Positions 3,282 to 62,062 of a stretch of 64,000 nucleotides of DNA are shown piece by piece; within the stretch, counting starts at the first letter, position 1, and each line of letters opens with the position of its first letter. The stretch covers positions 43,081 to 107,080 of the IMG/VR virus record IMGVR_UViG_3300047470_000212, one strand, 5' to 3'. The translations under genes and the position numbers were made by a program. The notes under the pieces were generated by a model. The model saw nothing but the letters and a program-made list of their open reading frames with translations, was not told the DNA's origin and ran no database searches. This DNA comes from a virus.

Positions 3282-3742
3282 TGCTCGGCCAGCCTCTTGA
3301 AGAGGTCGATGACGCGGGCGGTGAACTGGGTGCCCTTGATGGGCTTCTGGTGCGAGACCAGAACGCCCTCCTCGTGCGCGATGCGGACGATGCCCTCGAC
3401 CTGCTCGCGGGTGTAGAGGCGGCGACGGCCGCGCGGGTCGTCGTCCTTGCCCGGGGACTGGAAGGTGGACTTGGGAATGACTCCCTCCCTCTCCCACTTG
3501 CGGATGGTCACCGGCTGACGGCTCAGTGCCTTGGCGAGTTGACCGAGGGTGAAGAACTCAGTCTCCACACCGCCCACCGTGTACTTCCGGGGCTTGTGGT
3601 CCCAGTCGGCCGCCGACGTGGCGGCCTTGGTATGAAGCCCGTTGCGGTTGTGGTGGCGGACGATCGGCTTGGTGGACCCGGGGTAGAAGGCTTCCCCGAT
3701 CTCCGCGAAGTCCTGCTCGATGCTGGCGAGTGCAGTGCTCAT
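3278..3742 (-). CDS. MerR-type HTH DNA-binding protein
   Basis: FTLGQLAKALSRQPVTIRKWEREGVIP...RRLYTREQV. Confidence 0.75.
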   Translation of the reverse strand: MSTALASIEQDFAEIGEAFYPGSTKPIVRHHNRNGLHTKAATSAADWDHKPRKYTVGGVETEFFTLGQLAKALSRQPVTIRKWEREGVIPKSTFQSPGKDDDPRGRRRLYTREQVEGIVRIAHEEGVLVSHQKPIKGTQFTARVIDLFKRLAEQ

Positions 3743-4317: not shown

Positions 4318-4671
4318 TTACGGCTTCTTCGGATCCATTCGAACCGTGCGCCGGGCCGCGTAGGCGCGGGCGTCGTCGTCCAACTGATCCATGCGGACTT
4401 CAGTCTCGGCCACGTCCTGGTAGACGGTGACCACGCGGTGGTCGGCCGGGTCGACGATGGCGACGATGTCCCCTCGTACGTGGCGCCACTGTCCGGGGAC
4501 GCGGGCCGAGGGGTAGGTATGAAGCGGCTTGTCGGCCGCGAGGAGAACATCCTCGCTGGTCCAGCCCTTGGCGGCGGCCTGCTTCTGCGCGTGGTAGGTC
4601 AGCCGGTACTCCGGCGACTCGGTGGCGGGAGCGGTCCAGGTGATGCCCAGAGCTTCGGCGATGGTGGCCAT
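4318..4671 (-). CDS. DUF4258-like (RelE-like fold) protein
   Basis: LTYHAQKQAAAKGWTSEDV...IVAIVD...RVVTVY pattern; own promoter and RBS. Confidence 0.55.
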   Translation of the reverse strand: MATIAEALGITWTAPATESPEYRLTYHAQKQAAAKGWTSEDVLLAADKPLHTYPSARVPGQWRHVRGDIVAIVDPADHRVVTVYQDVAETEVRMDQLDDDARAYAARRTVRMDPKKP

Positions 4672-4717
4672 CTCGGTCTCCTCTGTTCGAGCCTCTGTTC
4701 GAGGCCTTGTGAGGACG

Positions 4718-4747
4718 ACTCTAAGATCACGCACCACCTCATGTCAA
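4718..4747 (-). promoter_or_regulatory. Putative principal-sigma promoter
   Basis: TTGACA-18-TAGAGT. Confidence 0.6.
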
Positions 4748-6618: not shown

Positions 6619-6905
6619 TGGGAGTACTGCCGATCGAACTGCCTGCTGGTGCGCGGGCGCCGGGCGAAGGGGACGCCGGGGGTGTAGTGCCCCTCCTGGA
6701 TGTGGTCCGGGTTGGCGCACATCCGTCGCGTGCACGCGCGGTGCTTCTGGCTGCCGCCTCCGGTGATGAAGGACAGCAGGCTCTGGCCCTTGTAGGTGGG
6801 CCGGGTCGCGGTGGACTGGAAGATCAGGCAGTCGGTGTCCGGGTCCGGCTGGACGCGGTCCCAGAAGGCCTGTCCCAGGTGTTCGTAGCCATCAGGCGGA
6901 AGCAT
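6612..6905 (-). CDS. Degenerate HNH-endonuclease-like zinc protein
   Basis: FWDRV..DCLIF...HRACTRRMCANPDHI; GGAGG RBS. Confidence 0.55.
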   Translation of the reverse strand: MLPPDGYEHLGQAFWDRVQPDPDTDCLIFQSTATRPTYKGQSLLSFITGGGSQKHRACTRRMCANPDHIQEGHYTPGVPFARRPRTSRQFDRQYSQC

Positions 6906-6951
6906 TGGCGGCCTCCGCCCAGGTATGAAGCCGGTTGTTCATGGGGTGCAT
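6892..6951 (-). CDS. 19-aa mini-ORF MHPMNNRLHTWAEAANASA carrying CTT-CAT-ACC in frame
   Basis: ATG overlaps primase stop (TGATG); ORF overlaps start of next gene. Confidence 0.5.
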   Translation of the reverse strand: MHPMNNRLHTWAEAANASA

Positions 6952-9605: not shown

Positions 9606-9850
9606 CAGGCTCGCTCCGCTTCGGCGCGGAGCCAGATATGAAGTCGTCCGTGCCGGAGTTCTGTGATCACACGGTGCTCGCGCACGCGGAATCCGAGGGC
9701 GGCAGCCTTGTAGACCGCGAGGAAGAGCAGCCGCTTGGCGGTCGCACGCTGCTCGGGGAACCGTCCGGTGATCGTCGCCGGGATCTCGTCCTTGTAGAGA
9801 ACCGACAAGACCTCGTCCTCGAAGGGGAGGACCATCTGCTCATGCGGCAC
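9605..9850 (-). CDS. Hypothetical protein
   Basis: GTG start with GGAGGA RBS; TGATG overlap downstream. Confidence 0.6.
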   Translation of the reverse strand: MPHEQMVLPFEDEVLSVLYKDEIPATITGRFPEQRATAKRLLFLAVYKAAALGFRVREHRVITELRHGRLHIWLRAEAERA

Positions 9851-10499
9851 GGCGATCTCCTCCGACGACGGTGATGTGGGTGAAGGCGCCCTGGATGAAG
9901 GAGCCCATCGAGGGGTTGTATGTGTCCCCCCACTTGCTCGGCGGGACGTTGGAGGTGACGAGGGTCGGCCGGGCCTCGCGGTGTCGAAGGCGCAGCAGGT
10001 CGTCCAGCAGGCCTTCGGCGTAGCCGGACTTGGTCTTGTGCTCCTTGCCGACGTCGTCGAGGAGGAGGACGGGCGCCTTCTCGGCCGCGACGATCTTGTC
10101 CGTGATCTCCCACCAGCGGGCAACGGCCTCGGGCTCGTGCCGGTCCTGGAGACCCATCCGCTCGATGGACAACTTCACGTAGTCCGAGTAGGCCAGCCAC
10201 GCCACGGGCAGGCGGCGGCCGAAGTAGACCTCCAGCAGCGTGGACGTGGCGAGCGTGGTCTTGCCTGTGCCGGGCGGCCCTACGACCAGCAGCCCCTTGC
10301 CGATGGTGCTCCAGTCGGCCGGGTACTCGTTCAGGGGGCGCTTGTCCGTGACGTAGTGGTCCCGGAGGTTGTCCACGAACTCCTGGCAGACGGCCTTGTG
10401 CGGCGAGTCCGCCAACGTATGAAGACGCAGGTGCTTGTAGTGCGCCGGGATGCCGTACTCCTTGAGCCGCAAGGCGTGGACCCGGGGGTCAGTCGCCAT
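9840..10499 (-). CDS. DnaC/IstB-like ATPase (helicase loader)
   Basis: GPPGTGKT, LLLDDVGKE, TLVTSN; between initiator and DnaB. Confidence 0.88.
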   Translation of the reverse strand: MATDPRVHALRLKEYGIPAHYKHLRLHTLADSPHKAVCQEFVDNLRDHYVTDKRPLNEYPADWSTIGKGLLVVGPPGTGKTTLATSTLLEVYFGRRLPVAWLAYSDYVKLSIERMGLQDRHEPEAVARWWEITDKIVAAEKAPVLLLDDVGKEHKTKSGYAEGLLDDLLRLRHREARPTLVTSNVPPSKWGDTYNPSMGSFIQGAFTHITVVGGDRRAA

Positions 10500-10583
10500 G
10501 TGGATACCTCCTGGTGGTGGTGGGTTCAACGTTCAGGAGGCTACCACAGTTATCGCTTCCTGGATACGTCTTCGGAACGCGTA

Positions 10584-10622: not shown

Positions 10623-11690
10623 TCAGGACCAGTAGTCCTCGTTGAACCTGTTGTTCTCCACCTCGTCGACCTTGTCAGCCTTGCCCAGTCGCTGGGTCAG
10701 CAGCCCACGGGCGGCAAGGAAGTCCTTCCAGGCGACCACGTTGTCCGAGCGCTGCCAGGAGGTGGACCAGTAGGTGATGATCATCTGGCGTACCTCTTCG
10801 CGCCCAAGGCCCTGGGCCATCCACCGGCCGAAGGTCCCAGTCAGGGCTCCGAGGTTGGTGGAGCCGGGGACCGGGTGACCTACTTCCCCGGCCCGGTGGT
10901 CGAAGAATTCCGCCAGTTCCTCCGAAGGCCTCTTGGAGCGCTTCTTAGGAGTTCGCCGGGCCGGAGGGGCCAGGTCGCCATCCGAAGCCGGGAGACGGGC
11001 GGCCAGGGACTCTCCTGGATCACCGTCACCGATGGCCTGGGATACCACGTAGGCCGGATCGAGTTCCCGCTCGGCCTGCTCCTGCTCCAAGGCCTCCTGC
11101 TTCCGGGACTTCCTCTTGCCGCCAGGACCCCGGAGGGGGCGTACCGCATTCCAGCCCTTGGCTCCCGGCCTGGGAGTCTCCTCGGCATCGTAGAGATCCG
11201 ACCGCGCCGACTGGCGCGGTGGAAGAGACGTAGTCTCTTCTATTTCTCTAGTAGTACTAGTTAGGTAGTTAGGGGTTGGGTGCACTCCAGTGCAGGGTGC
11301 AATATTTGCAGGGTCCTCTGGAGTTGTTATGTCACAACTACCTTCGTCGACCCCTGCATTATTTGCAGGTGTAGTTCTTGCACCCTTCTCGGGCTCCGGA
11401 ATCCACTCTTCGATGGGGAGAATCCGGCGCACAGCGGACTTGTACCGCAGGGACTCCAGAGGCCTCTCCTCGTCGGAAACGGACTCGATGATGCGACGCT
11501 CCTCCAGGTCCCGCAGGACGTTGTAGGTCTGCCGCTCCTTGATGTTGGCCTTGCTGGCGATGGTTGGTACTGAAAGCCAGCACATCCGGAAGTCGTCATC
11601 CGCTGCGTCGGCCATGGCCAGCAGGACCAGTCGGGATGCAAGTCGGGTGTGCTTGCTCCGCATCACCTCGCCCATGATGATTACGCTCAC
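10623..11690 (-). CDS. Replication initiator with N-terminal winged HTH
   Basis: RLVLLAMADAAD...CWLSVPTIASKANIKERQTYNVLRDLEE; precedes DnaC/DnaB. Confidence 0.75.
   Translation of the reverse strand: MSVIIMGEVMRSKHTRLASRLVLLAMADAADDDFRMCWLSVPTIASKANIKERQTYNVLRDLEERRIIESVSDEERPLESLRYKSAVRRILPIEEWIPEPEKGARTTPANNAGVDEGSCDITTPEDPANIAPCTGVHPTPNYLTSTTREIEETTSLPPRQSARSDLYDAEETPRPGAKGWNAVRPLRGPGGKRKSRKQEALEQEQAERELDPAYVVSQAIGDGDPGESLAARLPASDGDLAPPARRTPKKRSKRPSEELAEFFDHRAGEVGHPVPGSTNLGALTGTFGRWMAQGLGREEVRQMIITYWSTSWQRSDNVVAWKDFLAARGLLTQRLGKADKVDEVENNRFNEDYWS
11230..11385. promoter_or_regulatory. Putative replication origin inside the initiator gene
   Basis: Repeated TGCA-based units (TGCAATATTTGCAGG, TGCATTATTTGCAGG) next to an AT-rich tract. 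Confidence 0.55.
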
Positions 11691-11734
11691 TCGGCGACTC
11701 CGAGGAAGCGATAAGTATGAAGCGATAGCGTCAT
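11687..11734 (-). CDS. 15-aa leader ORF MTLSLHTYRFLGVAE carrying CTT-CAT-ACT in frame
   Basis: Stop overlaps initiator start (GTGA). Confidence 0.55.
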   Translation of the reverse strand: MTLSLHTYRFLGVAE

Positions 11735-11787
11735 GGTAATGTGCTCTCTATCTCGGGGTTTGTGGTGGGCCTCGGGGTGTGGTGGGC

Positions 11788-11843
11788 AAAGGCCCCCGGC
11801 AGTGGCTTGAAGGTCTTGAACCTCGCCAGCGCCGGGGGCCTTT
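11788..11843. terminator. Hairpin terminator
   Basis: AAAGGCCCCCGGC...GCCGGGGGCCTTT. Confidence 0.65.
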
Positions 11844-11850
11844 GCGTTAC

Positions 11851-39940: not shown

Positions 39941-40231
39941 TCAGATTTCGATGACGCGAGTGGGCTTCATCTGCCGCGTCTCGCGCTTGGCCTTGGCACG
40001 GCTCTCGAAAGGCTCTCCGCGCTCGATAACGTCACCGCTGGGAAGCACCTCATGCAGGACGTACTGTCGCGTCTTGGCGCCTTCCTCGTCCTCTACGGGA
40101 ACTCCGCGAACGAGGTAGCGTCCCCCGATGAGGCTCTTCCCGACCGTCTCGCCCTTTTGGAGCGGGAGGCGCGGAAGAACCTCATCGAAGGAGGCTCGTG
40201 GGGACCTGCGACGGTCGTTGAAGGCGACCAC
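39941..40231 (-). CDS. Hypothetical protein
   Basis: ORF in packaging operon. Confidence 0.6.
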   Translation of the reverse strand: MVAFNDRRRSPRASFDEVLPRLPLQKGETVGKSLIGGRYLVRGVPVEDEEGAKTRQYVLHEVLPSGDVIERGEPFESRAKAKRETRQMKPTRVIEI

Positions 40232-43921: not shown

Positions 43922-44998
43922 CTACTGCGCCCGCCGCAGTGGTACGACGTTCTCCTGGCTGACCATGGCGGTCAGGAACGGCTTGCCCTTCATGGTCTCG
44001 TCACGGCGCCTGCGCTCCGAGGACAGGCCCAGGTACCGCTCGGTGGTTGCCATGTTCGAGTGGTGCAGCAGGGCCGAGACCGTACGGAGCGCAGCGTCGT
44101 ATCCGACCTCCGTGGACAGCGCGTCGAAGTAGGCACGGGCCACCGCCCGGCGGATGGTGTGGGTGCCCTCGTAGCGGGTCGGCAGGCCCACGGCGGCCAG
44201 CGCGTGCTTGACGATCTTCTCCGTGCGCTGCACCGGCCGGTCCGGGTGCCACATGAACGGCGTGCGGACGTAGACCCGCTGGCCGGTCTCCTTGTCCAGG
44301 TAGTGCGTGGCGATGGTGTTGCCGGTACGGGCCGGGAAGAGGTAGTCGTCCGCGCGTAGGGGTCGGCCCAGCAGCTCGGCGTACTCGACCAGCCATACGC
44401 GCAGCTCGCGCTCCAGGTCGGCGGTCAGGGGCATCTCGTCCTCCTCCCTGGTCTTGATCACGGTCACGAAGACCTCGGACCGCGCGAAGTCGATGTCGCC
44501 GACGCGCATGTTCGTGATCTCCGAGGCACGGCACGCGGTGTTCACGGCCGTGGCCAAGTAGGCCCGGTGCATGGCGCACTCAGCCTGGTCCAGGAGCTGG
44601 AGCAGGATGGACGGGGCGGGCTGCTGGCGGCGCCTCTTCGGTTCCGGCAGGGGGTCGACGCCGGTCAGGTAGTTGTCCAGCGGGGTGAAGCCGCTGTTCT
44701 TGCAGAAGGAGAAGAACACCTTCAGCCGGGCGCGGTAGTTGTTGTGGGTGCCGGGGCCGACGGCCTCCCGAACCGGCTGTCCCTTGATGCGGGTGGAGTG
44801 GGTGTCCATGATCCCGCCGGGCCCGTAGAAGAAGTCCCGGACCTCCACGGCGCTCAGCTTGTCGAACTCCAGGTTGCCCAGGTGCTCGACGAACCGGGGC
44901 AGCAGAGTCTCGTCGACCCTCATCGTGTTGTCGGCCTTGCCGGAGCGCTTACGGATGTCCAGGTACTCCTCGACGGCGCTGCGCAGTGCGATGGTCAC
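43922..44998 (-). CDS. Tyrosine recombinase/integrase
   Basis: TACRASE, HTIRR, LLHHS, TERYL; AGGAGG RBS; TTGATG-17-TAGAGT promoter upstream. Confidence 0.93.
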   Translation of the reverse strand: MTIALRSAVEEYLDIRKRSGKADNTMRVDETLLPRFVEHLGNLEFDKLSAVEVRDFFYGPGGIMDTHSTRIKGQPVREAVGPGTHNNYRARLKVFFSFCKNSGFTPLDNYLTGVDPLPEPKRRRQQPAPSILLQLLDQAECAMHRAYLATAVNTACRASEITNMRVGDIDFARSEVFVTVIKTREEDEMPLTADLERELRVWLVEYAELLGRPLRADDYLFPARTGNTIATHYLDKETGQRVYVRTPFMWHPDRPVQRTEKIVKHALAAVGLPTRYEGTHTIRRAVARAYFDALSTEVGYDAALRTVSALLHHSNMATTERYLGLSSERRRRDETMKGKPFLTAMVSQENVVPLRRAQ

Positions 44999-45107
44999 GC
45001 TTCCTCCTGGTGCGGGGTTGGCTGCGTGTCCGACTCTACAGACGTCAAGCACATTCATCAAGATGATTGCGTAGCACTTCTTGAGAAGCGATAGTAGGGT
45101 GTGCGTC

Positions 45108-45266
45108 ATGGAAACCAACGCGCTTCATACCTCGGGGCTCACCGAGCCCCAGAGCAACATGACCGTCAGCCTGACGAACAACCGCATGGAGGACAGCCGC
45201 TGGAACCGACTCCTCACCATCCTCTTCACCCCGCAGGACGAGGACGCCCAGGCAGCCACCGCCTAG
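45108..45266 (+). CDS. 52-aa ORF upstream of serine recombinase, with CTT-CAT-ACC at codons 6-8
   Basis: METNALHTSG...; otherwise strongly C/G-ending codons. Confidence 0.6.
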   Translation: METNALHTSGLTEPQSNMTVSLTNNRMEDSRWNRLLTILFTPQDEDAQAATA

Positions 45267-45388: not shown

Positions 45389-47473
45389 ATGGCCAGCATA
45401 GCGGCCGAGCGGGCCCGTGTACGCGCGCAGAAGGTCAACGGCACCCGCCCCGGAACCCCCGGAACCTTCCAGTCCAGCACCGCCCTCGCACGCATCGTCA
45501 AGCGTGTCGGCGCCTACCTCCGTGTGTCCACCAAGGACCAGATCGTCGGCTACGGCCTCGACGTCCAGCTCAAGGGCATCCAGGACAACATCGACCTCAA
45601 GAACGCGACGGAAGAGCGCAACGGCACCAACATCGTCTGGGAACTCTCCGACGTCTACGAAGACGCGGGCGAGTCCGGCGCCAAGCAGGACCGGCCCGAG
45701 ATGATGCGCCTGGAGCGCGACGTCCTCGCCAAGAAGATCGACGTCGTCGCCGTCCACAAGTTCGACCGCATCGGCCGCACCGGCCGCGCCTTCTGGCACT
45801 GGGTCTGGGCCCTCGAAGATGCCGGAACCTCGATCATCTCCGTCACCCAGGAGATCGACACCACCACCACCCACGGCGTCACCGCGCTCCAGCAGCTCGC
45901 ATCCTTCTCCGAGATGGAATGGCGCACCATCCTGGAGCGCACCCAGAACGGCCTCAACATGAAGGCCGCCTCCGGAGGCTGGACCGGTGGCCCCCCGCCC
46001 TTCGGCTACTACATCGAGAACCAGGGCAAGCGCGACTCCAAGCTGGGCCTCGATACCGAAGAGTGCCGCACCCTCGAACTCGCCGCCCAGTTCATCGTCG
46101 AAGGCGGCTACACCGTCGACCGCGCCGCCCACATGCTCAACCTCATCGGCCGACTCACCCGCAAGGGCGTGGAGTGGACCGGATCCAACCTCCGGCACAA
46201 ATTCTTCAACACCGCCCTGGACGGATTCGTCGTCTACCGAAACACCGACGAAGTCGTCAACAAGCGCCGTAAGCGCGCCACCCGGATGAACCCTGACGGC
46301 ACCCCCAAGCACGGCCCCATGGTGATCATCGACACCCCGATGGTCTTCGAACTCGACCGGCTCATCTCCATCCGCCACGCCCTCAAGCGAAACGGCTGGA
46401 ACCTCACCGGCCCGTACAAGTACCACCCCCTCAGCACCCGCGTGATCGGTGAATGCGGCGCCCACTACACCGGAGTCTGGGTAAAGGCCGAGAACCGCCG
46501 CACCTACCGCTGCACCGGAAACAAGTGCGGCGACTCCGTGATCGACGCCGTGGCGCTCGAAGAAGTCGTCTGGGACAGCCTGAAGAACTTCCTCGGCGAC
46601 AAGGAGAAGCTGCGCGAGATCGCCAAGGACTGGGTGACCACCGCACCGGATCACCGCAAGATGTACGAGGCTCGTATTGAAGAACTCACGCGGGAAATCG
46701 CAGGTCTGCGTGAGCTGACCACCACCACGCTGGTCAACCTCGCGAAGGCGGGCGTCGATGCGCTGGCCATCAATTCAGCAGTGGCGAAGCTGAACGAGGA
46801 GATCAACAACAAGCAGGCGATGCTGGACGACGCCGTGTCGATGCTGGCGGAGGCGGAAGAGTCCGCTACTCGCGCCGAGGATTTCCAGCGCCTGGTCGAG
46901 ATCGCCACCTTCAACCTGGAGTTCATCACCGACCGGCAGAAGGCCGAAGTGATGGACCTGCTGGAGATTCAGGTGACGCTCATCGGGCCGGTTCCGCTGG
47001 ACGGCCGCTTCGGGCCGGACTCCGACATCGAGCAGTGGTTCGGAAAGCGCAGTGTTCAGCCGGTCGAGATGACCGATGCGCTGTGGGAGGAGATCCGTCC
47101 TCGGATCAGCTTCCGGGCCTCGAAGAAGAGCCACGATCTGCGGGGGCTGGTGGAGGGTCTGCTCTACAAGGCCCGCACGGGTTGCCCGTGGTCTGAGATG
47201 CCGGAGCACTTCCCGCCGAAGGAGGCTCTGAGGGCCCGCTGGAGGGCCTGGAAGGACGGGGCGTGGGAGAACATCGTCGAGCCTCTTCTGGAGCCCGCTC
47301 CGCCGCGTAAGCCGCCGCTGCCGCCCATGAAGGTGACGGGGAACATCGACCCCCGTCTGGTCGAGTTCACCAACGGTCAGGCGACGAGCCAGGTTCCGCA
47401 CTCTGCTGGACGAACTTCCAGGGGATTGTTCACGTACGTCATCAACCTGGAAAAATGGCGATTGGCCGCCTGA
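45389..47473 (+). CDS. Large serine recombinase with C-terminal DUF4096-like domain
   Basis: YLRVST, ESGAKQDRP, DRIGR, PFGY, zinc ribbon and coiled coil; MTDALWEEI...LLYKARTGCPWSEMP. Confidence 0.93.
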   Translation: MASIAAERARVRAQKVNGTRPGTPGTFQSSTALARIVKRVGAYLRVSTKDQIVGYGLDVQLKGIQDNIDLKNATEERNGTNIVWELSDVYEDAGESGAKQDRPEMMRLERDVLAKKIDVVAVHKFDRIGRTGRAFWHWVWALEDAGTSIISVTQEIDTTTTHGVTALQQLASFSEMEWRTILERTQNGLNMKAASGGWTGGPPPFGYYIENQGKRDSKLGLDTEECRTLELAAQFIVEGGYTVDRAAHMLNLIGRLTRKGVEWTGSNLRHKFFNTALDGFVVYRNTDEVVNKRRKRATRMNPDGTPKHGPMVIIDTPMVFELDRLISIRHALKRNGWNLTGPYKYHPLSTRVIGECGAHYTGVWVKAENRRTYRCTGNKCGDSVIDAVALEEVVWDSLKNFLGDKEKLREIAKDWVTTAPDHRKMYEARIEELTREIAGLRELTTTTLVNLAKAGVDALAINSAVAKLNEEINNKQAMLDDAVSMLAEAEESATRAEDFQRLVEIATFNLEFITDRQKAEVMDLLEIQVTLIGPVPLDGRFGPDSDIEQWFGKRSVQPVEMTDALWEEIRPRISFRASKKSHDLRGLVEGLLYKARTGCPWSEMPEHFPPKEALRARWRAWKDGAWENIVEPLLEPAPPRKPPLPPMKVTGNIDPRLVEFTNGQATSQVPHSAGRTSRGLFTYVINLEKWRLAA

Positions 47474-48164: not shown

Positions 48165-48212
48165 GACATGGAGCCTATTCTTCGGACGCTCAGGACTGGT
48201 AACTTGGCGGCT

Positions 48213-48413
48213 ATGACTGCCGATGAAGGACTGAACCTCTCCCCCGCCGAGGCTGCTGTACTCGCGTGGTTCGTTATCGACGAGCCCAGGATGACCTATG
48301 TCGACGCGGCTAAGAAACTTGGAGTCGCAGAAGACTTCGTCCGAATTATCGAGTCGCGAGCAAAGAGCAAGCTGCGCCGGTTCACCGGCGAGCGTTGGCC
48401 TTTGGACCAATGA
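48213..48413 (+). CDS. Stand-alone sigma-70 region 4-like HTH protein
   Basis: LSPAEAAVL...TYVDAAKKLGVAEDFVRIIESRAKSKLR. Confidence 0.65.
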   Translation: MTADEGLNLSPAEAAVLAWFVIDEPRMTYVDAAKKLGVAEDFVRIIESRAKSKLRRFTGERWPLDQ

Positions 48414-51345: not shown

Positions 51346-52488
51346 CTACTTTCCTATCGTCTTCCTGCGGCGCAGCGGATCCTTGCGCTGGGGGTCCACG
51401 GGGACAATCTGCGTGGGCGCGTCCGTCCCTTCCGGCAGGTCCTCCAGCTTGGTCCAGTAGGGCTCGATCCAGGTGGTGGTGGACTGCGTGCGCTGGCCGG
51501 ACTTCCCGGGCCCGATCCAGACCGTCTTGAAGTGGCCCGCTCTGTGCTGCGGCCCGTACTCGACGCCCGACGGGATGGAGATGCCGGAGCGGTTCAGTGC
51601 GGCAGCCCGCTGACGGGCGGTGTGCAGTTGAGGACCGACGTACCAACCGACACGGACCCAGAACGGGTCACGTTCCTTGGGCCTTCGCCCCTTGCCGGTC
51701 TTCTTCCTGCCCTGCGCCGTCGTCCACTCCGGGGGTTCCTTGACGTCCCGGTTGTCGGTGCACAGGTAGGTGAGGACCGCGAAGGCCTTCTGGAGGATGG
51801 GCCGGAAGGTCTTGACCGCGTCGCTGCGGTCCTTCCCGTCGGCGCTTCCGCCCTGCCACTCCTCGGCGAACCGGATGGCCTCTGCGGCCGTGAATGTCTT
51901 CCGGTCCATCGGGAGGGGGATGAGGTCTCGGTGACCTCCGGGAAGGATCTCCCCGGTGTCCTCGTCGACCACGTCGTAGCAGAAGAGGAGCGCCAGTCCG
52001 TCGCGGTCCGGGTCGTTGGAGTTGCACAGGCCCATTCCGGAGAAGCCGGTGATGAAGAAGCACCGCACGTAACCCTCTGCCAGGCCGCCACGGCCCTTGC
52101 CAGCAGGCCAAGGGTCGGGGATGACGACCATGGGGTTGATGTGCGGCAGCTTGTTGAACAGCTCGCCGGGAACCTTGTCCATCTTGGAGCGGTACAGGGC
52201 GTCGGCCAGCTCCTGGTGGAGGTCGTAGACGACCCGACCGTTGCGCTTCCACAGCTCGCTGGCGGCGATCTCCCCCATGAGGTCCCCGGTCCGCTCCAGA
52301 GTCGCCTGGTCGAACTGGACACGGTCCTGGGCGTCCCAGCCGGGAGCGATCCCGCGCATCATCGAGTCGATCCGTCGCGCGATCTTCGGGATGCTGCGTA
52401 GCTCCCGAGAAGCCTCGGTCAGCATGTCCACATGAGCCATGGCGGCCTTGTGCGCCTCGGCGGCCCTGCGGGTTCGGTCTTGTGCCAT
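51346..52488 (-). CDS. AcrVA2/FinQ-like protein
   Basis: W....VY.....L..AL; P...LP; LTYLC; VG..VG..L; HRAGHFKTVWIGP..WIEP (recalled family pattern). Confidence 0.55.
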   Translation of the reverse strand: MAQDRTRRAAEAHKAAMAHVDMLTEASRELRSIPKIARRIDSMMRGIAPGWDAQDRVQFDQATLERTGDLMGEIAASELWKRNGRVVYDLHQELADALYRSKMDKVPGELFNKLPHINPMVVIPDPWPAGKGRGGLAEGYVRCFFITGFSGMGLCNSNDPDRDGLALLFCYDVVDEDTGEILPGGHRDLIPLPMDRKTFTAAEAIRFAEEWQGGSADGKDRSDAVKTFRPILQKAFAVLTYLCTDNRDVKEPPEWTTAQGRKKTGKGRRPKERDPFWVRVGWYVGPQLHTARQRAAALNRSGISIPSGVEYGPQHRAGHFKTVWIGPGKSGQRTQSTTTWIEPYWTKLEDLPEGTDAPTQIVPVDPQRKDPLRRRKTIGK

Positions 52489-52523
52489 CGATCCCTCCCT
52501 GACGTGCAAATCCTACGGGCAGA

Positions 52524-53441: not shown

Positions 53442-53649
53442 CGTGCGGCCCTAACCCAACGGCCGCCTTGGGTCACGCAGTTGTCAAGCCGAGTGACCGC
53501 TTCGCCACCCTGCGCTAGTAGCATGCTCCCCAATTCGCCATGGTGCAAGTGCATGAGCCGGGCAAGTGCACGAAGGGGTGAAGGCTGTTGCGTGATAAGA
53601 GGGGGTGGCAGACTGTGGGGCGATACCCGCAACCAGGGAGGGAGCGCAG

Positions 53650-54504
53650 GTGGACAGTCCAACCGTGCTGAGACGACGACTCGGCACCGAGCTGCGCAAC
53701 ATGCGCGTGGCCAAGGGACTGACCGGGGCGGCAGTTGCGCAGCAGTTTGGTTGGTCCGAATCCAAGGTCAGCCGGATCGAGTCCGGGAAGTCTCCGCTAT
53801 CCGACAAGGATGCCAAAGACCTGCTGGGCTTGTACGGCGTAGCTGAGCAACGGGAGGTCCAGCAGTTCGTCGGGCTGGTCCGGAGGAGTCGTCAGCCTGG
53901 CTGGTGGCACTCCTACGGTGACGCGCTTCCCGAGTGGTTCAAGGCCTACGTGGGCTTCGAGTCGGACGCCTCGGTGATCCGCACTTACCAGACCGAGCTG
54001 ATCCCTGGACTTCTCCAGTCGGAGGAGTACGCGCGGGCTGTCATCAGGGCGATGAACACTGATGACTCCGTCGAGGAGGTTGAGCGCAGGGCGTCACTGC
54101 GCATCCAGCGGCAGGAGATTTTCGATCGTCCTTCGCCGCCGAAGTTCTGGACCGTCCTCAACGAGGCGGTGCTACGACGTGTGGTGGGCTCGCCGAAGGT
54201 CATGGCTGAACAACTCGACCACCTGGCGGCCCTCGTGGACGCTCACCCGAGCGTCACTGTCCAGATCCTGCCTTTTGATGCCGGGGCCCACGCCAGCATG
54301 GGGTACAGCTTCTCGCTCATGTCCTTCGAGGACGTGCCCGGGAGCATCGCTTACTCCGAGGCGCTGACCAGTGCCACGTACATGGAGAAGCCAGCGGATG
54401 TGGACCAGCATGACGAGATCTTCCAGCGACTCCTGGCGGCATCCACTCGGCCAAACCGTTCCATCGACTGGCTAAGAGAAACAGCAAGGGAGTACAAGGC
54501 GTGA
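53650..54504 (+). CDS. XRE HTH-DUF5753 regulator (WhiJ/Scr1-like)
   Basis: RRRLGTELR..SKVSRIESG; IPGLLQSEEYARA; EAVLRR; VQILPF. Confidence 0.93.
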   Translation: MDSPTVLRRRLGTELRNMRVAKGLTGAAVAQQFGWSESKVSRIESGKSPLSDKDAKDLLGLYGVAEQREVQQFVGLVRRSRQPGWWHSYGDALPEWFKAYVGFESDASVIRTYQTELIPGLLQSEEYARAVIRAMNTDDSVEEVERRASLRIQRQEIFDRPSPPKFWTVLNEAVLRRVVGSPKVMAEQLDHLAALVDAHPSVTVQILPFDAGAHASMGYSFSLMSFEDVPGSIAYSEALTSATYMEKPADVDQHDEIFQRLLAASTRPNRSIDWLRETAREYKA

Positions 54505-54698
54505 ACACCGACGAGCTGGTCTTCCGCAAGAGCAGCTACAGCAACGGTCAGGGAGACTGCGTGGAGGTGGCGGTCACGCGTGACGGCGGCCGGGCTGTGC
54601 GTGACTCCAAGAACCCCGCCGGGGGCCTCCACTTCTTCAATCCGTCGGAGTGGGCTGCCTTCGTGGCGGGAGTGAAGGATGGCGAGTTCGACAACTGA
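54501..54698 (+). CDS. DUF397 protein (BldB/Scr2-like)
   Basis: RKSSYS...CVEVA...VRDSKNP...WAAFV. Confidence 0.95.
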   Translation: MNTDELVFRKSSYSNGQGDCVEVAVTRDGGRAVRDSKNPAGGLHFFNPSEWAAFVAGVKDGEFDN

Positions 54699-55751: not shown

Positions 55752-56010
55752 TCTGGCCGTCCTCCTTGTCCTTCTTGTCCTTCTTGGCCGACCAGGCGCT
55801 CAGTTCGTCGTACCAGGCGAGGTAGTCGCCGTAGCCGCCCTTGCGTCCGCCGAAGGAGAACGGGTTCAGGCCGTAGCGGATCGGGCCGTAGGGCCAGCCC
55901 TCGTCGTCCCGCTCGACCACGGTGGTGACGGTCTTGGAGAACTCGCTCCAGTTGCCGTCCTTGTCCTTCTCGCTGTGGACCACGGTGGTCGTTGTCGTCC
56001 TACGCGACAC
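55744..56010 (-). CDS. Hypothetical protein
   Basis: Overlapping operon gene. Confidence 0.6.
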   Translation of the reverse strand: MSRRTTTTTVVHSEKDKDGNWSEFSKTVTTVVERDDEGWPYGPIRYGLNPFSFGGRKGGYGDYLAWYDELSAWSAKKDKKDKEDGQNA

Positions 56011-56194
56011 TGTCTTCCTCCAGGTTGTACTTGCCGTAGAAGTCGATGTGCAGGGAGTCGTTGTTCTCCGCGCGGTCCAGCCAGCGTTTGGCGAAGACCT
56101 CGCGGGAGTAGAAGAGAGTCCTGGCGGCCCAGGTGCCGTCCTTGTTGATCAGCACCCGGACCTTCCAGAGGTGGTTGTCCCTAGCCGTCCGCAC
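56000..56194 (-). CDS. Hypothetical protein
   Basis: Overlapping operon gene. Confidence 0.55.
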   Translation of the reverse strand: MRTARDNHLWKVRVLINKDGTWAARTLFYSREVFAKRWLDRAENNDSLHIDFYGKYNLEEDSVA

Positions 56195-58368: not shown

Positions 58369-58662
58369 ATGTTCTGGTCCTGCGAGATCTGCAACGACTG
58401 GGGGGTCGCCGACAACGAGGTCGACCTCGTGGTGGACCGCCAACGGCACAAGGACACCCACGAGTTCCCGGGCACGACAGAGCCCCAGCAGGAGTCCGTG
58501 GAGGAGGATGAGGACACTGTCCTCGGCGCCAATTACCTGGCGTGGGGTATCACGGCCCTGCTGGGGCTACTGTCTGCTCACTGGCACGCGCTGGTGGGGG
58601 TAGTCCCCCTGGCGGGCCTGCTCGCCTTCGTCCTGACCTTCCGGCCGAACGACAAAGGGTGA
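58369..58662 (+). CDS. Small zinc-finger/membrane protein
   Basis: CEIC...H..H; two TM segments; AGGAGG RBS. Confidence 0.65.
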   Translation: MFWSCEICNDWGVADNEVDLVVDRQRHKDTHEFPGTTEPQQESVEEDEDTVLGANYLAWGITALLGLLSAHWHALVGVVPLAGLLAFVLTFRPNDKG

Positions 58663-58743
58663 ACGAAGGGGGTCGAACCCTCACGCCCCTCTCGGGACAC
58701 CGGGGTCACAGCCCGGCGCGGCTACCTTTTCGCCACGTTCACC
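58658..58743 (-). tRNA. tRNA-His(GTG) with G-1:C73 and an atypical long variable arm
   Basis: Acceptor GTGAACG/CGTTCAC, anticodon arm CCGGG-CTGTGAC-CCCGG, variable stem GTCCC-GAGA-GGGGC, T arm GAGGG-TTCGACC-CCCTT. Confidence 0.85.
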
Positions 58744-59422: not shown

Positions 59423-59914
59423 CTACTTCACGGTGTAGCGACCGTAGTAAACGGACTTCGTCCAGGGCTTGTAGTAGTTGACTCCCTTACCGGGCCGCTC
59501 GGTTTCCAGCCAGGTGTGGGAATTGACGTAGATACCGACGTGGTAGACGTAGCCGTGGGAGTCGTGCGCGAAGACGAGGTCCCCGGTCTTGGGGGTCTTG
59601 ACGTGCACGCTCTTGCGGTACTGGTCGTTGGCGACCCGGGGGATGCTCTTCCCGAGGCGCTTGAATGTGTACTGGGTGAATCCAGAGCAGTCGAAACCTC
59701 TGGACGGTGAGGAACCTCCCCACACGTACCGGACGCCTATGTATTTGGCGCCCTGCTTCACGATTTTCGTTCCGGACGACGTCGTGGTGGTGGCGTGGGC
59801 CGGGGCCGAGACGTTCGTGGAGGCGGCCGGGGTATTTGCCTGCGCGCTTGATGTAGCGAGCGGGGAAATAGCCAGGGCGCCAGCGAGCAGAAGTCCAGCG
59901 ATGCTCTTATTCAT
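59423..59914 (-). CDS. Secreted NlpC/P60 peptidoglycan endopeptidase
   Basis: Signal peptide MNKSIAGLLLAG..AQA; YVWGG, FDCSG, HVGIY. Confidence 0.92.
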   Translation of the reverse strand: MNKSIAGLLLAGALAISPLATSSAQANTPAASTNVSAPAHATTTTSSGTKIVKQGAKYIGVRYVWGGSSPSRGFDCSGFTQYTFKRLGKSIPRVANDQYRKSVHVKTPKTGDLVFAHDSHGYVYHVGIYVNSHTWLETERPGKGVNYYKPWTKSVYYGRYTVK

Positions 59915-59928
59915 GACAGCACTCCGCA

Positions 59929-60052
59929 CGCCTGCGAGATTAGGTGACGGGCTCGGGATAAGTGCCTTTCCCTACCACAAATGACTCTGCGGATTCGCCC
60001 CAAAAGATTCGGTCTCCCGCCCCTGTTCAGGGTTGAGTTCAGGATTTGTCCA
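59929..60052 (-). ncRNA. c-di-AMP (ydaO/yuaA)-like riboswitch
   Basis: AATCC..GGGAGACC..TTTGGGGCGAATC..GTAGGG..CCCGAGCCCGTCACCTAATCTCGCAGGC directly before RBS of a cell-wall hydrolase. Confidence 0.75.
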
Positions 60053-60651: not shown

Positions 60652-61017
60652 TCACTTGTGCGCGTCCTCAAACTCGCGGAGCAGGTCCTCCGGCAGTCGG
60701 CCGGTGTGGGACACGTCGCGCCCCTGCTCCTGCAACCACTTGCGGACGTCCGCCGTGGTGAAGGCGCCCCTCTTGCCCTTGATCGCCCTGCGCACCTGCG
60801 TACCCGTGCGCTTCTGCGTGTCGCTTGCGATCGAGGTGAAGGGCTCCAGCACCTCATGCATGTGGTCGATGTGCTCCTGGCACAGGTCCATCAGGTAGCG
60901 GGTGGTCCCGACGGTGATCGGGGTGGCCTCGTTGTTCGGCACATCCTGCCCGCAAGCTACCTTTTCGCGCTTCCGAGTGACCTTGAAGTCGCACTTCTTC
61001 ATCACTACGTCTGCCAT
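60652..61017 (-). CDS. lsr2: Lsr2-like nucleoid-associated protein
   Basis: YLMDLC...L.PF; VRKWLQEQGRDVSHTGRLP; AAGGAG RBS. Confidence 0.85.
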   Translation of the reverse strand: MADVVMKKCDFKVTRKREKVACGQDVPNNEATPITVGTTRYLMDLCQEHIDHMHEVLEPFTSIASDTQKRTGTQVRRAIKGKRGAFTTADVRKWLQEQGRDVSHTGRLPEDLLREFEDAHK

Positions 61018-61138
61018 CGATAACTCCTTAACAACGCGACCCCCGTAGTGCGCCGCACAGCTTTCATTTGACGTCAACCATACTGCTAGTGCAGTACGGC
61101 ATCTGTCAAGCGATTCCAGTGTGGCGCTCGACAAGCCG

Positions 61139-62062
61139 TTACCTGAAGGTCCTACCCAGAAGAGACTCAACCGGCTGGAAAACCCCACCCAAGAGGCTCT
61201 CCGTGTCGCGTCGGCCCGCGTTCACCGGAGGACGGGTCGTAGCAGTAGGACTGGGCGTCACCATAGGGCGAGTCAGCGTCGTAACCGGGGCGGTAGAGGG
61301 GGTGGGAGGGGTGTCTTCCCTGCGGTGCCTTCCCCTGTAGTGGTGCCCCTTGTGCTCCTCCGCGAGGTGGTGGCGCTTGTGCCGGGGGTGGTCAGGCTTC
61401 TTGTGGTTCTGGGCGTCCGGAATACCGCCCCGGGCGCTGTTGGGGTTCACAGTGGGGAGCTGAGCGGGCGCTTGGACGACCGTCGGCGTGGTGACTGGGG
61501 CCGGAGTCTGAGACGGCGACTCCTCGGCGGCGAGGTCCGTCTGCTCCACCGTGGGCTTGCGATGTTCCCTGGCCTCATCGACGGCGTACGCCGCGACGCC
61601 GATGGCGAACGGAGTCGCCACAGCAGCCACCACGGTGACCATGGCCCGAGACATCACGCGCTGCCGGGCCGTGGGTGCACGACGGTGGGAGACCCTCTTC
61701 CTCTCAGGTTCCGGCGCAGGTTCCGGCGTGGGGCAGCAGGACTGCGCGTCGTCGCAGCGCCAGAAGCCCATCTCCTGCCGTTCCTCGATCCAGCCGAAGC
61801 ACAGCTCGCCTTCGTCGACCATCTTGAGGAGTACGGCTTCTATCTGTCCTTCCGCAGTGTCTTCGAAGGGATCTGCCAGGCCGTAGAAGTCGGGGATGGA
61901 CCCCTCGTGAGGCACGTCCTCCTTGTCTCGAAGGTGCGGTGCCCCCGCTTCTTCTTTGGGCTTCTCCTGGGAGGCGCCGTTGCCCCCCAGGAACTGACGA
62001 CGCAGTCCTCGGACGTCCTGATTCCCTGTGTCGTCCGCACCGTCGCGCCTGATCGTGTTCAT
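61139..62062 (-). CDS. Membrane-anchored Pro/Thr-rich protein
   Basis: Central TM segment, low-complexity C-terminus. Confidence 0.6.
   Translation of the reverse strand: MNTIRRDGADDTGNQDVRGLRRQFLGGNGASQEKPKEEAGAPHLRDKEDVPHEGSIPDFYGLADPFEDTAEGQIEAVLLKMVDEGELCFGWIEERQEMGFWRCDDAQSCCPTPEPAPEPERKRVSHRRAPTARQRVMSRAMVTVVAAVATPFAIGVAAYAVDEAREHRKPTVEQTDLAAEESPSQTPAPVTTPTVVQAPAQLPTVNPNSARGGIPDAQNHKKPDHPRHKRHHLAEEHKGHHYRGRHRREDTPPTPSTAPVTTLTRPMVTPSPTATTRPPVNAGRRDTESLLGGVFQPVESLLGRTFR

Follow-up and report, generated by a model that had tools for sequence, protein, structure and literature searches.

Leader-peptide attenuation and classical translational coupling, as in ermC, cat and the MS2 coat-replicase pair, have made short open reading frames (ORFs) that control the gene behind them familiar. 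In Streptomyces, the adpA upstream ORF (uORF) contains an in-frame rare UUA codon and an AUGA stop-start overlap, and ribosome profiling (Ribo-seq) detects a pause at the codon (Antonov et al. 2023, PMC10732093). The stoperators of Cluster A mycobacteriophages are duplex DNA sites for a repressor of the L5 gp71 type (PMC6550527). Here we describe a 15-codon leader ORF that precedes the replication initiator gene of a phage, and the nine-letter word within it, which recurs in frame throughout the phage genome and is followed by a hairpin. The leader lies in a window of 64,000 nucleotides (bases 43081-107080 of IMG/VR record IMGVR_UViG_3300047470_000212, 107,080 bp, about 64% G+C) and, like nearly all genes of that window, is encoded on the minus strand. 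By analogy, the adpA uORF, which belongs to the same host genus, is the closest precedent for the leader, and the Cluster A stoperators are the closest precedent for the network of sites. From the sequence comparisons below, we consider the chances evenly balanced that the leader is translated and coupled to the initiator and carries a composite element of word and hairpin, read during translation together with a putative lineage-specific factor. The features of the locus, in window coordinates, are the following.

11687..11734, minus strand: leader ORF of 15 codons, MTLSLHTYRFLGVAE followed by a stop, read from the sequence.
11714..11722, minus strand: motif copy CTT CAT ACT, leader codons 5-7, in frame, read from the sequence.
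11684..11710, minus strand: leader hairpin CGCTT(C)CTCGG-AGTCG-CCGAG(T)GAGCG, enclosing the Shine-Dalgarno (SD) sequence and start codon of the initiator, from RNA folds.
11698..11701, minus strand: GGAG, SD sequence of the initiator, 7 nt 5' of its GTG, at the junction of the hairpin 5' arm and loop, read from the sequence.
11744..11754, minus strand: purine-rich tract GAGATAGAGAG, 9 nt before the leader ATG, a weak SD candidate, read from the sequence.
10623..11690, minus strand: replication initiator, 355 aa, HTH_36, lambda-O-like, starting at GTG 11690, from Pfam and PHROG matches.
9840..10529, minus strand: DnaC-like helicase loader, following the initiator in the replication module and containing an in-frame motif copy at 10424, from a PHROG match.

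The leader runs from 11734 to 11687 and reads ATG ACG CTA TCG CTT CAT ACT TAT CGC TTC CTC GGA GTC GCC GAG TGA; its ATG occupies 11734-11732, and its TGA (11689-11687) shares GTGA with the initiator GTG (11690-11688). A sequence-only reading of this DNA had reported such a leader with the motif in frame and the GTGA stop-start overlap, and had stated that the initiator lacks a motif of its own; both statements are confirmed, the first in the minus-strand sequence and the second by a search for CTTCATA inside the initiator ORF (10623..11690), which found no copy. Pfam assigns the initiator to HTH_36, and several PHROG families annotated “replication initiation O-like” match it too; its start is supported by a profile alignment that begins at residue 1 and by a conserved (M)SI(L/I) N-terminus. 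Relatives conserve GTG, ATG or TTG followed by AGC ATC at this start, and do not conserve the in-frame ATG at 11675. They hold GGAG, GGGG or GGGGAG at the position of the initiator SD sequence, and all have a purine-rich tract (GAGAGAG, GGGAAG or AAAGG) 8-9 nt 5' of the leader ATG. Genes for the DnaC-like loader, DnaB helicase and primase (PHROG) come after the initiator. A TAnCAT sequence overlapping the leader ATG was rejected as a -10 box, not being conserved in the L014 group.

Relatives were recovered with the initiator protein and a conserved intergenic 16-mer, yielding dozens in IMG/VR together with a prophage in Streptomyces sp. NPDC002088. The sequence-only reading had named conservation of leader and overlap in related phages as a check, and both are kept: 23 distinct relatives retain the leader's start codon, its frame and a stop that overlaps the initiator start (as GTGA, ATGA or TTGA), despite indels and heavy sequence change. 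Leader lengths among them are 12, 13, 14 or 15 codons, the differences always being multiples of 3 nt. Such retention of start, frame and overlap by 23 distinct relatives goes beyond what a chance ORF would show. The leader has a low G+C content at third codon positions (GC3), only about 0.55, and its substitutions do not favour third positions; apart from LHTY, therefore, its peptide sequence is not conserved. Judged from these comparisons, what is conserved is the act of reading the leader ORF and not its peptide product. In relative L110 (IMGVR_UViG_3300047321_000518, about 2590-2700) leader and downstream long ORF form one continuous frame (MTRILHTYGAPGAENIH...), a natural conversion of leader into N-terminus that puts the motif at protein codons 5-7, with initiator homology beginning only at about residue 97.

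The word itself is by far too frequent for chance. Allowing up to one mismatch, CGCTTCATAC has 17 copies against 2.06 expected (0 of 100 shuffles reach 17), and CTTCATACC, at 163-fold the most enriched 9-mer of the 107-kb genome, has 35 copies where chance would give about 0.2; the coding strand carries 34 of these. The window contains 27 copies of the shorter CTTCATAY (Y, C or T) and the genome 48 of CTTCATA, 47 of the latter on the minus strand. All CTTCATA copies are co-oriented with their gene and stand in frame 0, reading CTT-CAT-AYC within genes; likewise, in a survey of frame and location covering 243 sites in 8 genomes, the coding copies all read CTT-MAT-AYC (M, A or C). Codon usage was rejected as the cause of this frame lock, the copies it predicts being 0.038, 0.056 and 0.010 in frames 0, 1 and 2. 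Copies on the minority strand are found in three different opposite-strand genes (in G000, G003 and G006), in frame and near the N-terminus; since they sit in minority-strand genes and keep the frame, the word follows the gene and not the DNA strand. At the protein level no tripeptide exceeds its expected frequency by more than LHT, with 17 occurrences where 2.25 would be expected; the codon pair CTT-CAT encodes 14 of them, even though 9% of Leu codons are CTT and 15% of His codons CAT. The majority of copies fall well within large ORFs, at conserved codons of the genes for DNA polymerase, DnaB, primase and tape measure among others, and gene junctions are enriched in sites. A literature search for the word or a comparable system found nothing.

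Copies outside long ORFs follow the same rule. Each of the 18 such sites among the 243 belongs to a mini-ORF that opens with ATG, GTG or TTG, in frame and 2-7 codons before the word, and closes on the next gene's start or within about 14 nt of it; no perfect copy was found in untranslated sequence in the survey. The genes that have mini-ORF leaders include the initiator, recA, the gene after primase and the gene after tape measure, and at least four genes besides the initiator have equivalent motif-bearing leaders. The recA leader is preceded by an AGGAG SD sequence, and its ATG is replaced by GTG in G006. After primase, a bridging mini-ORF, MHPMNNRLHTWAEAANASA (6892-6951, minus strand), overlaps the primase stop with its ATG (TGATG), and the gene that follows starts at ATG 6905, as homology to G001 indicates, 11 nt before the mini-ORF stop. 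Because this ATG precedes the stop, coupling here would act by overlap and not through a shared stop and start.

A lineage switch in the word shows what kind of signal it is. We call genomes with CTTCATAYC C-type and those with CTTAATAYC A-type. The A-type clade (G001, G002, G009, G011-G013) has no CTTCATAYC at all and 13-39 coding-strand copies of CTTAATAYC at orthologous codons, and the two words are mutually exclusive both genome-wide and at orthologous positions. At the leader, A-type relatives carry CTT AAT ATC in the motif position; their leaders (ATG TCG AGC CGA CTT AAT ATC AAC ...) differ at about half of the codons and keep the same frame and the same stop. The motif copy of the DnaC-like loader likewise has an orthologous A-type copy in G001. 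Where His seems to be required, the A-type clade has dropped the site: its primase keeps the LHT peptide in the ordinary codons CTG CAC ACC, and its DnaB has CAG CAC ACC. The sequence-only reading had named the signal LHT, but a peptide signal of that kind is rejected, given that the codons are fixed as CTT-CAT, the A-type word encodes Leu-Asn-Thr and the A-type primase writes LHT differently; the signal consists of the nucleotides CTT-CAT-AYC and the downstream hairpin. Since the A-type clade swaps the word and its primase recodes LHT, the signal is a nucleotide word with a putative clade-specific reader rather than a peptide, and the en-bloc change from C to A points to a reader that acts in trans.

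In a replication-gene tree rooted with Alone3 and BRock, cultured distant relatives in which no comparable word was found, the A-type clade is nested inside the C-type; the structural-gene tree leaves its root unresolved. We also considered whether the frame lock could be a legacy of an A-type ancestor, in which the other frames would give TAA or TTA-ATA. This is unlikely because the A-type is nested within the C-type, and lineage-specific C-type copies, which are in frame as well, weigh against it too. Of the copies in Streptomyces sp. NPDC002088, 40 are packed into the prophage, about 95 kb of a single contig, and 32 are spread over the rest of the genome (10.6 Mb). In this otherwise C-type prophage, a CTTAATACC copy lies 21 nt 5' of a CTTCATACC copy (G008:C18:136147-136176), the only place where both word types were seen together.

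The second component of the signal is a hairpin. In the leader it begins at +12 from the first motif base, has its 5' arm within the leader and holds both GGAG and GTG; across 7 distinct orthologues 88.6% of cells are paired, compared with 34-49% in slid controls. It is a local instance of a hairpin that follows the motif genome-wide: from +9 to +49 after the word, the minimum free energy (MFE) is -14.2 kcal/mol, against -10.3 kcal/mol in nearby in-frame controls (p = 1e-26), and the upstream flank shows no comparable folding excess. The first helix begins at +11 from CUU in 40% of sites and 9% of controls, is kept at the same place in 20 of 29 orthologue clusters, and has compensatory changes in 23 of 272 pairs. 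An identical 19-mer comprising the motif and the hairpin start (CTTCATACCTACGGGGGC...) occurs at G000 40200-40218 and at 3379-3397 (outside the window; L054, L052), where it heads the recA leader and the N-terminus of an unrelated gene, which hints that whole motif-hairpin modules get copied.

These observations suggest how the leader may work. It would be translated, its UGA overlapping the initiator GUG, and ribosomes finishing it would unfold the hairpin and then reinitiate at the initiator, as expected from an SD sequence and start codon that lie within a hairpin whose 5' arm belongs to the leader. The role of the leader would be to carry one mRNA copy of the phage-wide element, an in-frame CUU-CAU-AYC with a hairpin 2-3 nt later. 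From the spacing between word and hairpin, arrival of the hairpin at the mRNA entrance of the ribosome (about +11) should find CUU in the P site and CAU in the A site, and it is the frame lock, the embedding of outlying copies in mini-ORFs and this geometry that point to ribosomes as what reads the element, putatively together with a lineage-specific factor. The likeliest action would be a programmed and regulatable pause or arrest of the ribosome, and the leader would thereby bring an initiator that lacks the motif into a regulon of about 45 other genes for replication, recombination, lysis and the virion. Productive frameshifting is not supported: there is no X XXY YYZ pattern, the distances to the first stop in +1 and -1 are similar to those of controls, and GC3 stays in frame 0 across internal sites. 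The earlier proposal had been that translational coupling makes initiator synthesis depend on ribosomes passing the motif, gating phage replication, and it is partly supported. Its architectural part is strongly supported by comparison with the 23 relatives, and the predicted hairpin around the SD sequence and GTG and the at least four other leaders accord with it; as for the dependence, the arrangement suggests that initiator synthesis probably does hinge on how ribosomes handle the signal of motif and hairpin, and replication may be gated in this way.

The 200 nt 5' of the initiator are far better conserved than the initiator protein (50-72% identical), and run in the order upstream gene stop, hairpin of -60 kcal/mol, two repeats, purine-rich tract and leader. 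Two further features belong to this stretch.

11752..11786, minus strand: two direct repeats, CCCACCACACCCCGAG and CCCACCACAAACCCCGAG, candidate iterons or operator, near-invariant in relatives.
11786..11845, minus strand: long, very stable hairpin just 3' of the upstream gene stop (MFE -60.1 kcal/mol, z = -7.5).

The repeats have the form CCCACCACA(N2-3)CCCCGAG and are nearly invariant across relatives, and it was a 16-mer from this region that recovered the whole clade from IMG/VR. The hairpin is conserved in relatives, has no T-run and is not called by a simple terminator scan; from its predicted fold it is probably a terminator or an RNA-stability element. Taken together, 11752-11845 (minus strand) may possibly comprise a terminator with iterons, an origin or an operator.

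Since the phage encodes a tyrosine integrase and a serine recombinase, we regard it as temperate, and a prophage relative was found integrated in Streptomyces sp. NPDC002088. Neither a megablast of the window nor a search with the initiator protein gave a match in the “phages” collection. The tyrosine integrase gene (43922-45118, minus strand) adjoins that of a large serine recombinase fused to a DUF4096 transposase-like domain (45389-47473, plus strand), which is present in the A-type provirus G009 (84% identity) and not in G003 or G010. Elsewhere in the window are a WhiJ-like XRE helix-turn-helix (HTH)/DUF5753 gene with a DUF397 (BldB-like) partner, a typical pair of Streptomyces developmental regulators (53605-54698, plus strand); a stand-alone sigma-70 region-4 protein (48168-48413, plus strand); a protein with an Lsr2 domain (60652-61188, minus strand); and a phage-borne c-di-AMP (ydaO) riboswitch (59915-60049, minus strand; Rfam, 71.9 bits) directly 5' of a secreted cell-wall-hydrolase-like gene (59423-59929).

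Several observations weigh against an element read by ribosomes, and some of them favour a site in DNA. At the leader itself, the hairpin has only two compensatory pairs, both from one lineage (L001), a local fold z-score of only -1.7, and no clear counterpart in the 12-codon leader of G006; the leader SD is weak, and the initiator has its own well-spaced GGAG and so could initiate independently. Genome-wide, the stems are near-perfect Watson-Crick palindromes that fold about equally on either strand (-14.2 and -14.5 kcal/mol), with a sense bias relative to controls of only 0.95 kcal/mol, so that the case for a structure in RNA, as against one in DNA, is only slightly stronger. The hunt for a reader by divergence between C-type and A-type genomes returned only small ORFs without a domain match (e.g. 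56000-56194, 64 aa), and two lead genes, one with a suspected RelE fold (4318-4737) and one AcrVA2-like (51346-52509), were dropped for want of Pfam, PHROG or PDB-sequence support. An odd tRNA-His (58657-58742, minus strand) was rejected as decoder, being absent from the motif-bearing G006, G009, G010 and G011; no GUU counterpart was found in A-type genomes. This 86-nt tRNA occurs in G000, G003 and G004. Its anticodon is GUG, its acceptor stem has 8 bp (G-1:C73, or Sec-like 8/5), and GAGA closes its long variable arm; such a type-II body is abnormal on a His anticodon. Because the phage is temperate and the word clade-specific, the main rival is a set of stoperator-like DNA operators, in which a 9-11-bp asymmetric word binds a putative lineage-specific repressor that stops RNA polymerase at each of some 45 positions. 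The replication module would then have its operator in the copy preceding the initiator, and the mini-ORF would be a by-product or do no more than bridge coupled genes. A temperate lifestyle combined with a lineage-specific site variant is exactly what operator/repressor immunity predicts, and the case is strengthened by the two recombinases and the integrated relative with its 40 prophage sites, by about 45 asymmetric sites oriented with transcription, by a consensus that switches between clades as that of Cluster A stoperators does between heteroimmune subclusters (PMC6550527), by the unusually conserved intergenic region with its repeats, and by hairpins without clear strand bias. We nevertheless think this explanation unlikely: 26 of 26 L5 stoperators lie in untranslated gaps, where no perfect copy of the present word is found; no site departs from the one frame, not even those in mini-ORFs or in N- and C-terminal tails free of constraint; a duplex site predicts neither a hairpin whose sequence varies at constant distance from the word nor start codons that persist 2-7 codons before it across indels; and no repressor candidate co-varies with the site, the HTH candidates having no type-specific pattern.

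A somewhat smaller chance attaches to an RNA element that acts independently of ribosomes, with word and hairpin forming the site of an RNA-binding protein or endoribonuclease, of phage or host, that governs mRNA processing, stabilisation or decay, and with the leader copy setting the stability or accessibility of the initiator mRNA. The motif-plus-hairpin architecture, the orientation with genes and the enrichment at gene junctions suit it, and the S-R context directly upstream of CUU resembles the preference of mycobacterial RNase E for RN followed by CNU; it leaves unexplained the absolute frame lock, the conserved starts and the stop-on-start design of the 18 mini-ORFs, and cutting inside about 28 essential ORFs would be costly. 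The word could also be a promoter for a phage-directed RNA polymerase or sigma factor, of the -10-only kind found in T4 late promoters, with transcripts that start at the hairpin as a protective 5' stem-loop and a leader ATG upstream of the transcript. A short AT-rich word in many copies in a GC-rich genome would fit, as would the need for a new promoter after the strong hairpin at 11786-11845, where no sigma-70-type promoter was found. Such a promoter is highly improbable given that most copies are deep in large ORFs at conserved codons, that the frame lock and conserved leader start codons would go unexplained, and that no phage RNA polymerase or full sigma factor occurs among the genes scanned. 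We attach least credence of all, very little, to a nick-site motif of the T5, tf or phiKMV type, at which a phage nickase would cut one strand and the ORF would be coincidental, even though a word beside a hairpin recalls HUH-type nick sites. The tf-like phages do have a conserved 9-10-nt word in 9-13 copies, most of which are coding-strand copies and many of which stand where a gene begins (10.1101/2024.10.22.619576), but in the tf annotation 14 of 14 nicks fall on one (top) strand, even inside bottom-strand genes. The present copies instead follow gene strand and frame in three minority-strand genes, and nicking does not account for the mini-ORF architecture.

Returning to an element read in translation, we advance only tentatively the wider proposition that CUU-MAU-AYC with a hairpin at +11 defines a kind of in-frame translational control element not known before, doing in translation what stoperators do in transcription. 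A putative clade-specific phage or prophage factor (for CAU or AAU) would arrest or release ribosomes at about 45 sites, and genes with N-termini unable to carry the word, the initiator and recA among them, would join through coupled leaders. Short leader ORFs coupled to a regulator are already known; what has not been described is the combination seen here, in which a leader conserves nothing but a word that about 45 unrelated genes of the same phage also contain in frame, a hairpin follows the word at the distance of the ribosome entrance, and a sister clade has switched the word en bloc from a His codon to an Asn codon. If ribosomes do read the word, a temperate Streptomyces phage would have a genome-wide translational regulon of evolvable specificity, and the initiator leader, 48 nt with a single motif, hairpin and reporter junction, would be the simplest place to test it; if the wider proposition holds, a temperate phage would have immunity or timing control that acts on ribosomes and not on RNA polymerase. 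Were the word a DNA operator after all, its absolute frame lock would still need a new explanation.

Set beside the adpA uORF, the leader is alike in being a short ORF with a rare-codon signal near the start of a regulator, in having a stop that overlaps the main start, and in using a codon signal that also occurs inside main ORFs; its sequence provides its own start and a weak candidate ribosome-binding tract, a stop-start overlap and a maintained ORF, which are among the features by which a uORF of the adpA type would be recognised. It differs in that adpA uses a single codon read by a developmentally regulated tRNA (bldA), whereas the phage has a three-codon word with a hairpin, about 45 to a genome and in a clade-specific variant (CAU or AAU). 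The single-gene devices of ermC, cat and MS2 type share with it a short leader ORF 5' of a gene whose ribosome-binding site, by prediction in the phage, lies in a hairpin that the leader ribosome would control. They rely on inducer-specific arrest peptides, whereas here the word is common to dozens of unrelated genes and the peptide is not conserved.

For the network of sites, Cluster A stoperators offer the nearest likeness: in temperate actinophages, 20-50 asymmetric scattered sites are oriented with transcription, are syntenic, and have a consensus that co-varies between related lineages. Unlike the 13-bp L5 sites, all 26 of which are in untranslated gaps, the phage word is always in ORFs or mini-ORFs, keeps one frame and is then followed by a hairpin. 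The tf-like Pseudomonas phages (bioRxiv 10.1101/2024.10.22.619576) also have a conserved asymmetric word of 9-10 nt, enriched in one clade only and often at gene starts; theirs is on one DNA strand regardless of the gene, whereas the phage word follows gene strand and frame. Recoding and pausing signals such as dnaX and the bacterial selenocysteine insertion sequence (SECIS) resemble the composite element in having an in-frame element inside an ORF with a sequence-variable hairpin a short, constant way behind it, and in the geometry of shift site, 5-9-nt spacer and stem-loop, by which the first two motif codons would likewise be in the P and A sites at contact with the hairpin. The phage word differs from them: it lacks a -1 slippery pattern, no ORF or stop in another frame is conserved, reading stays in the zero frame through every internal site, and its hairpin loops, unlike those of SECIS, are not conserved.

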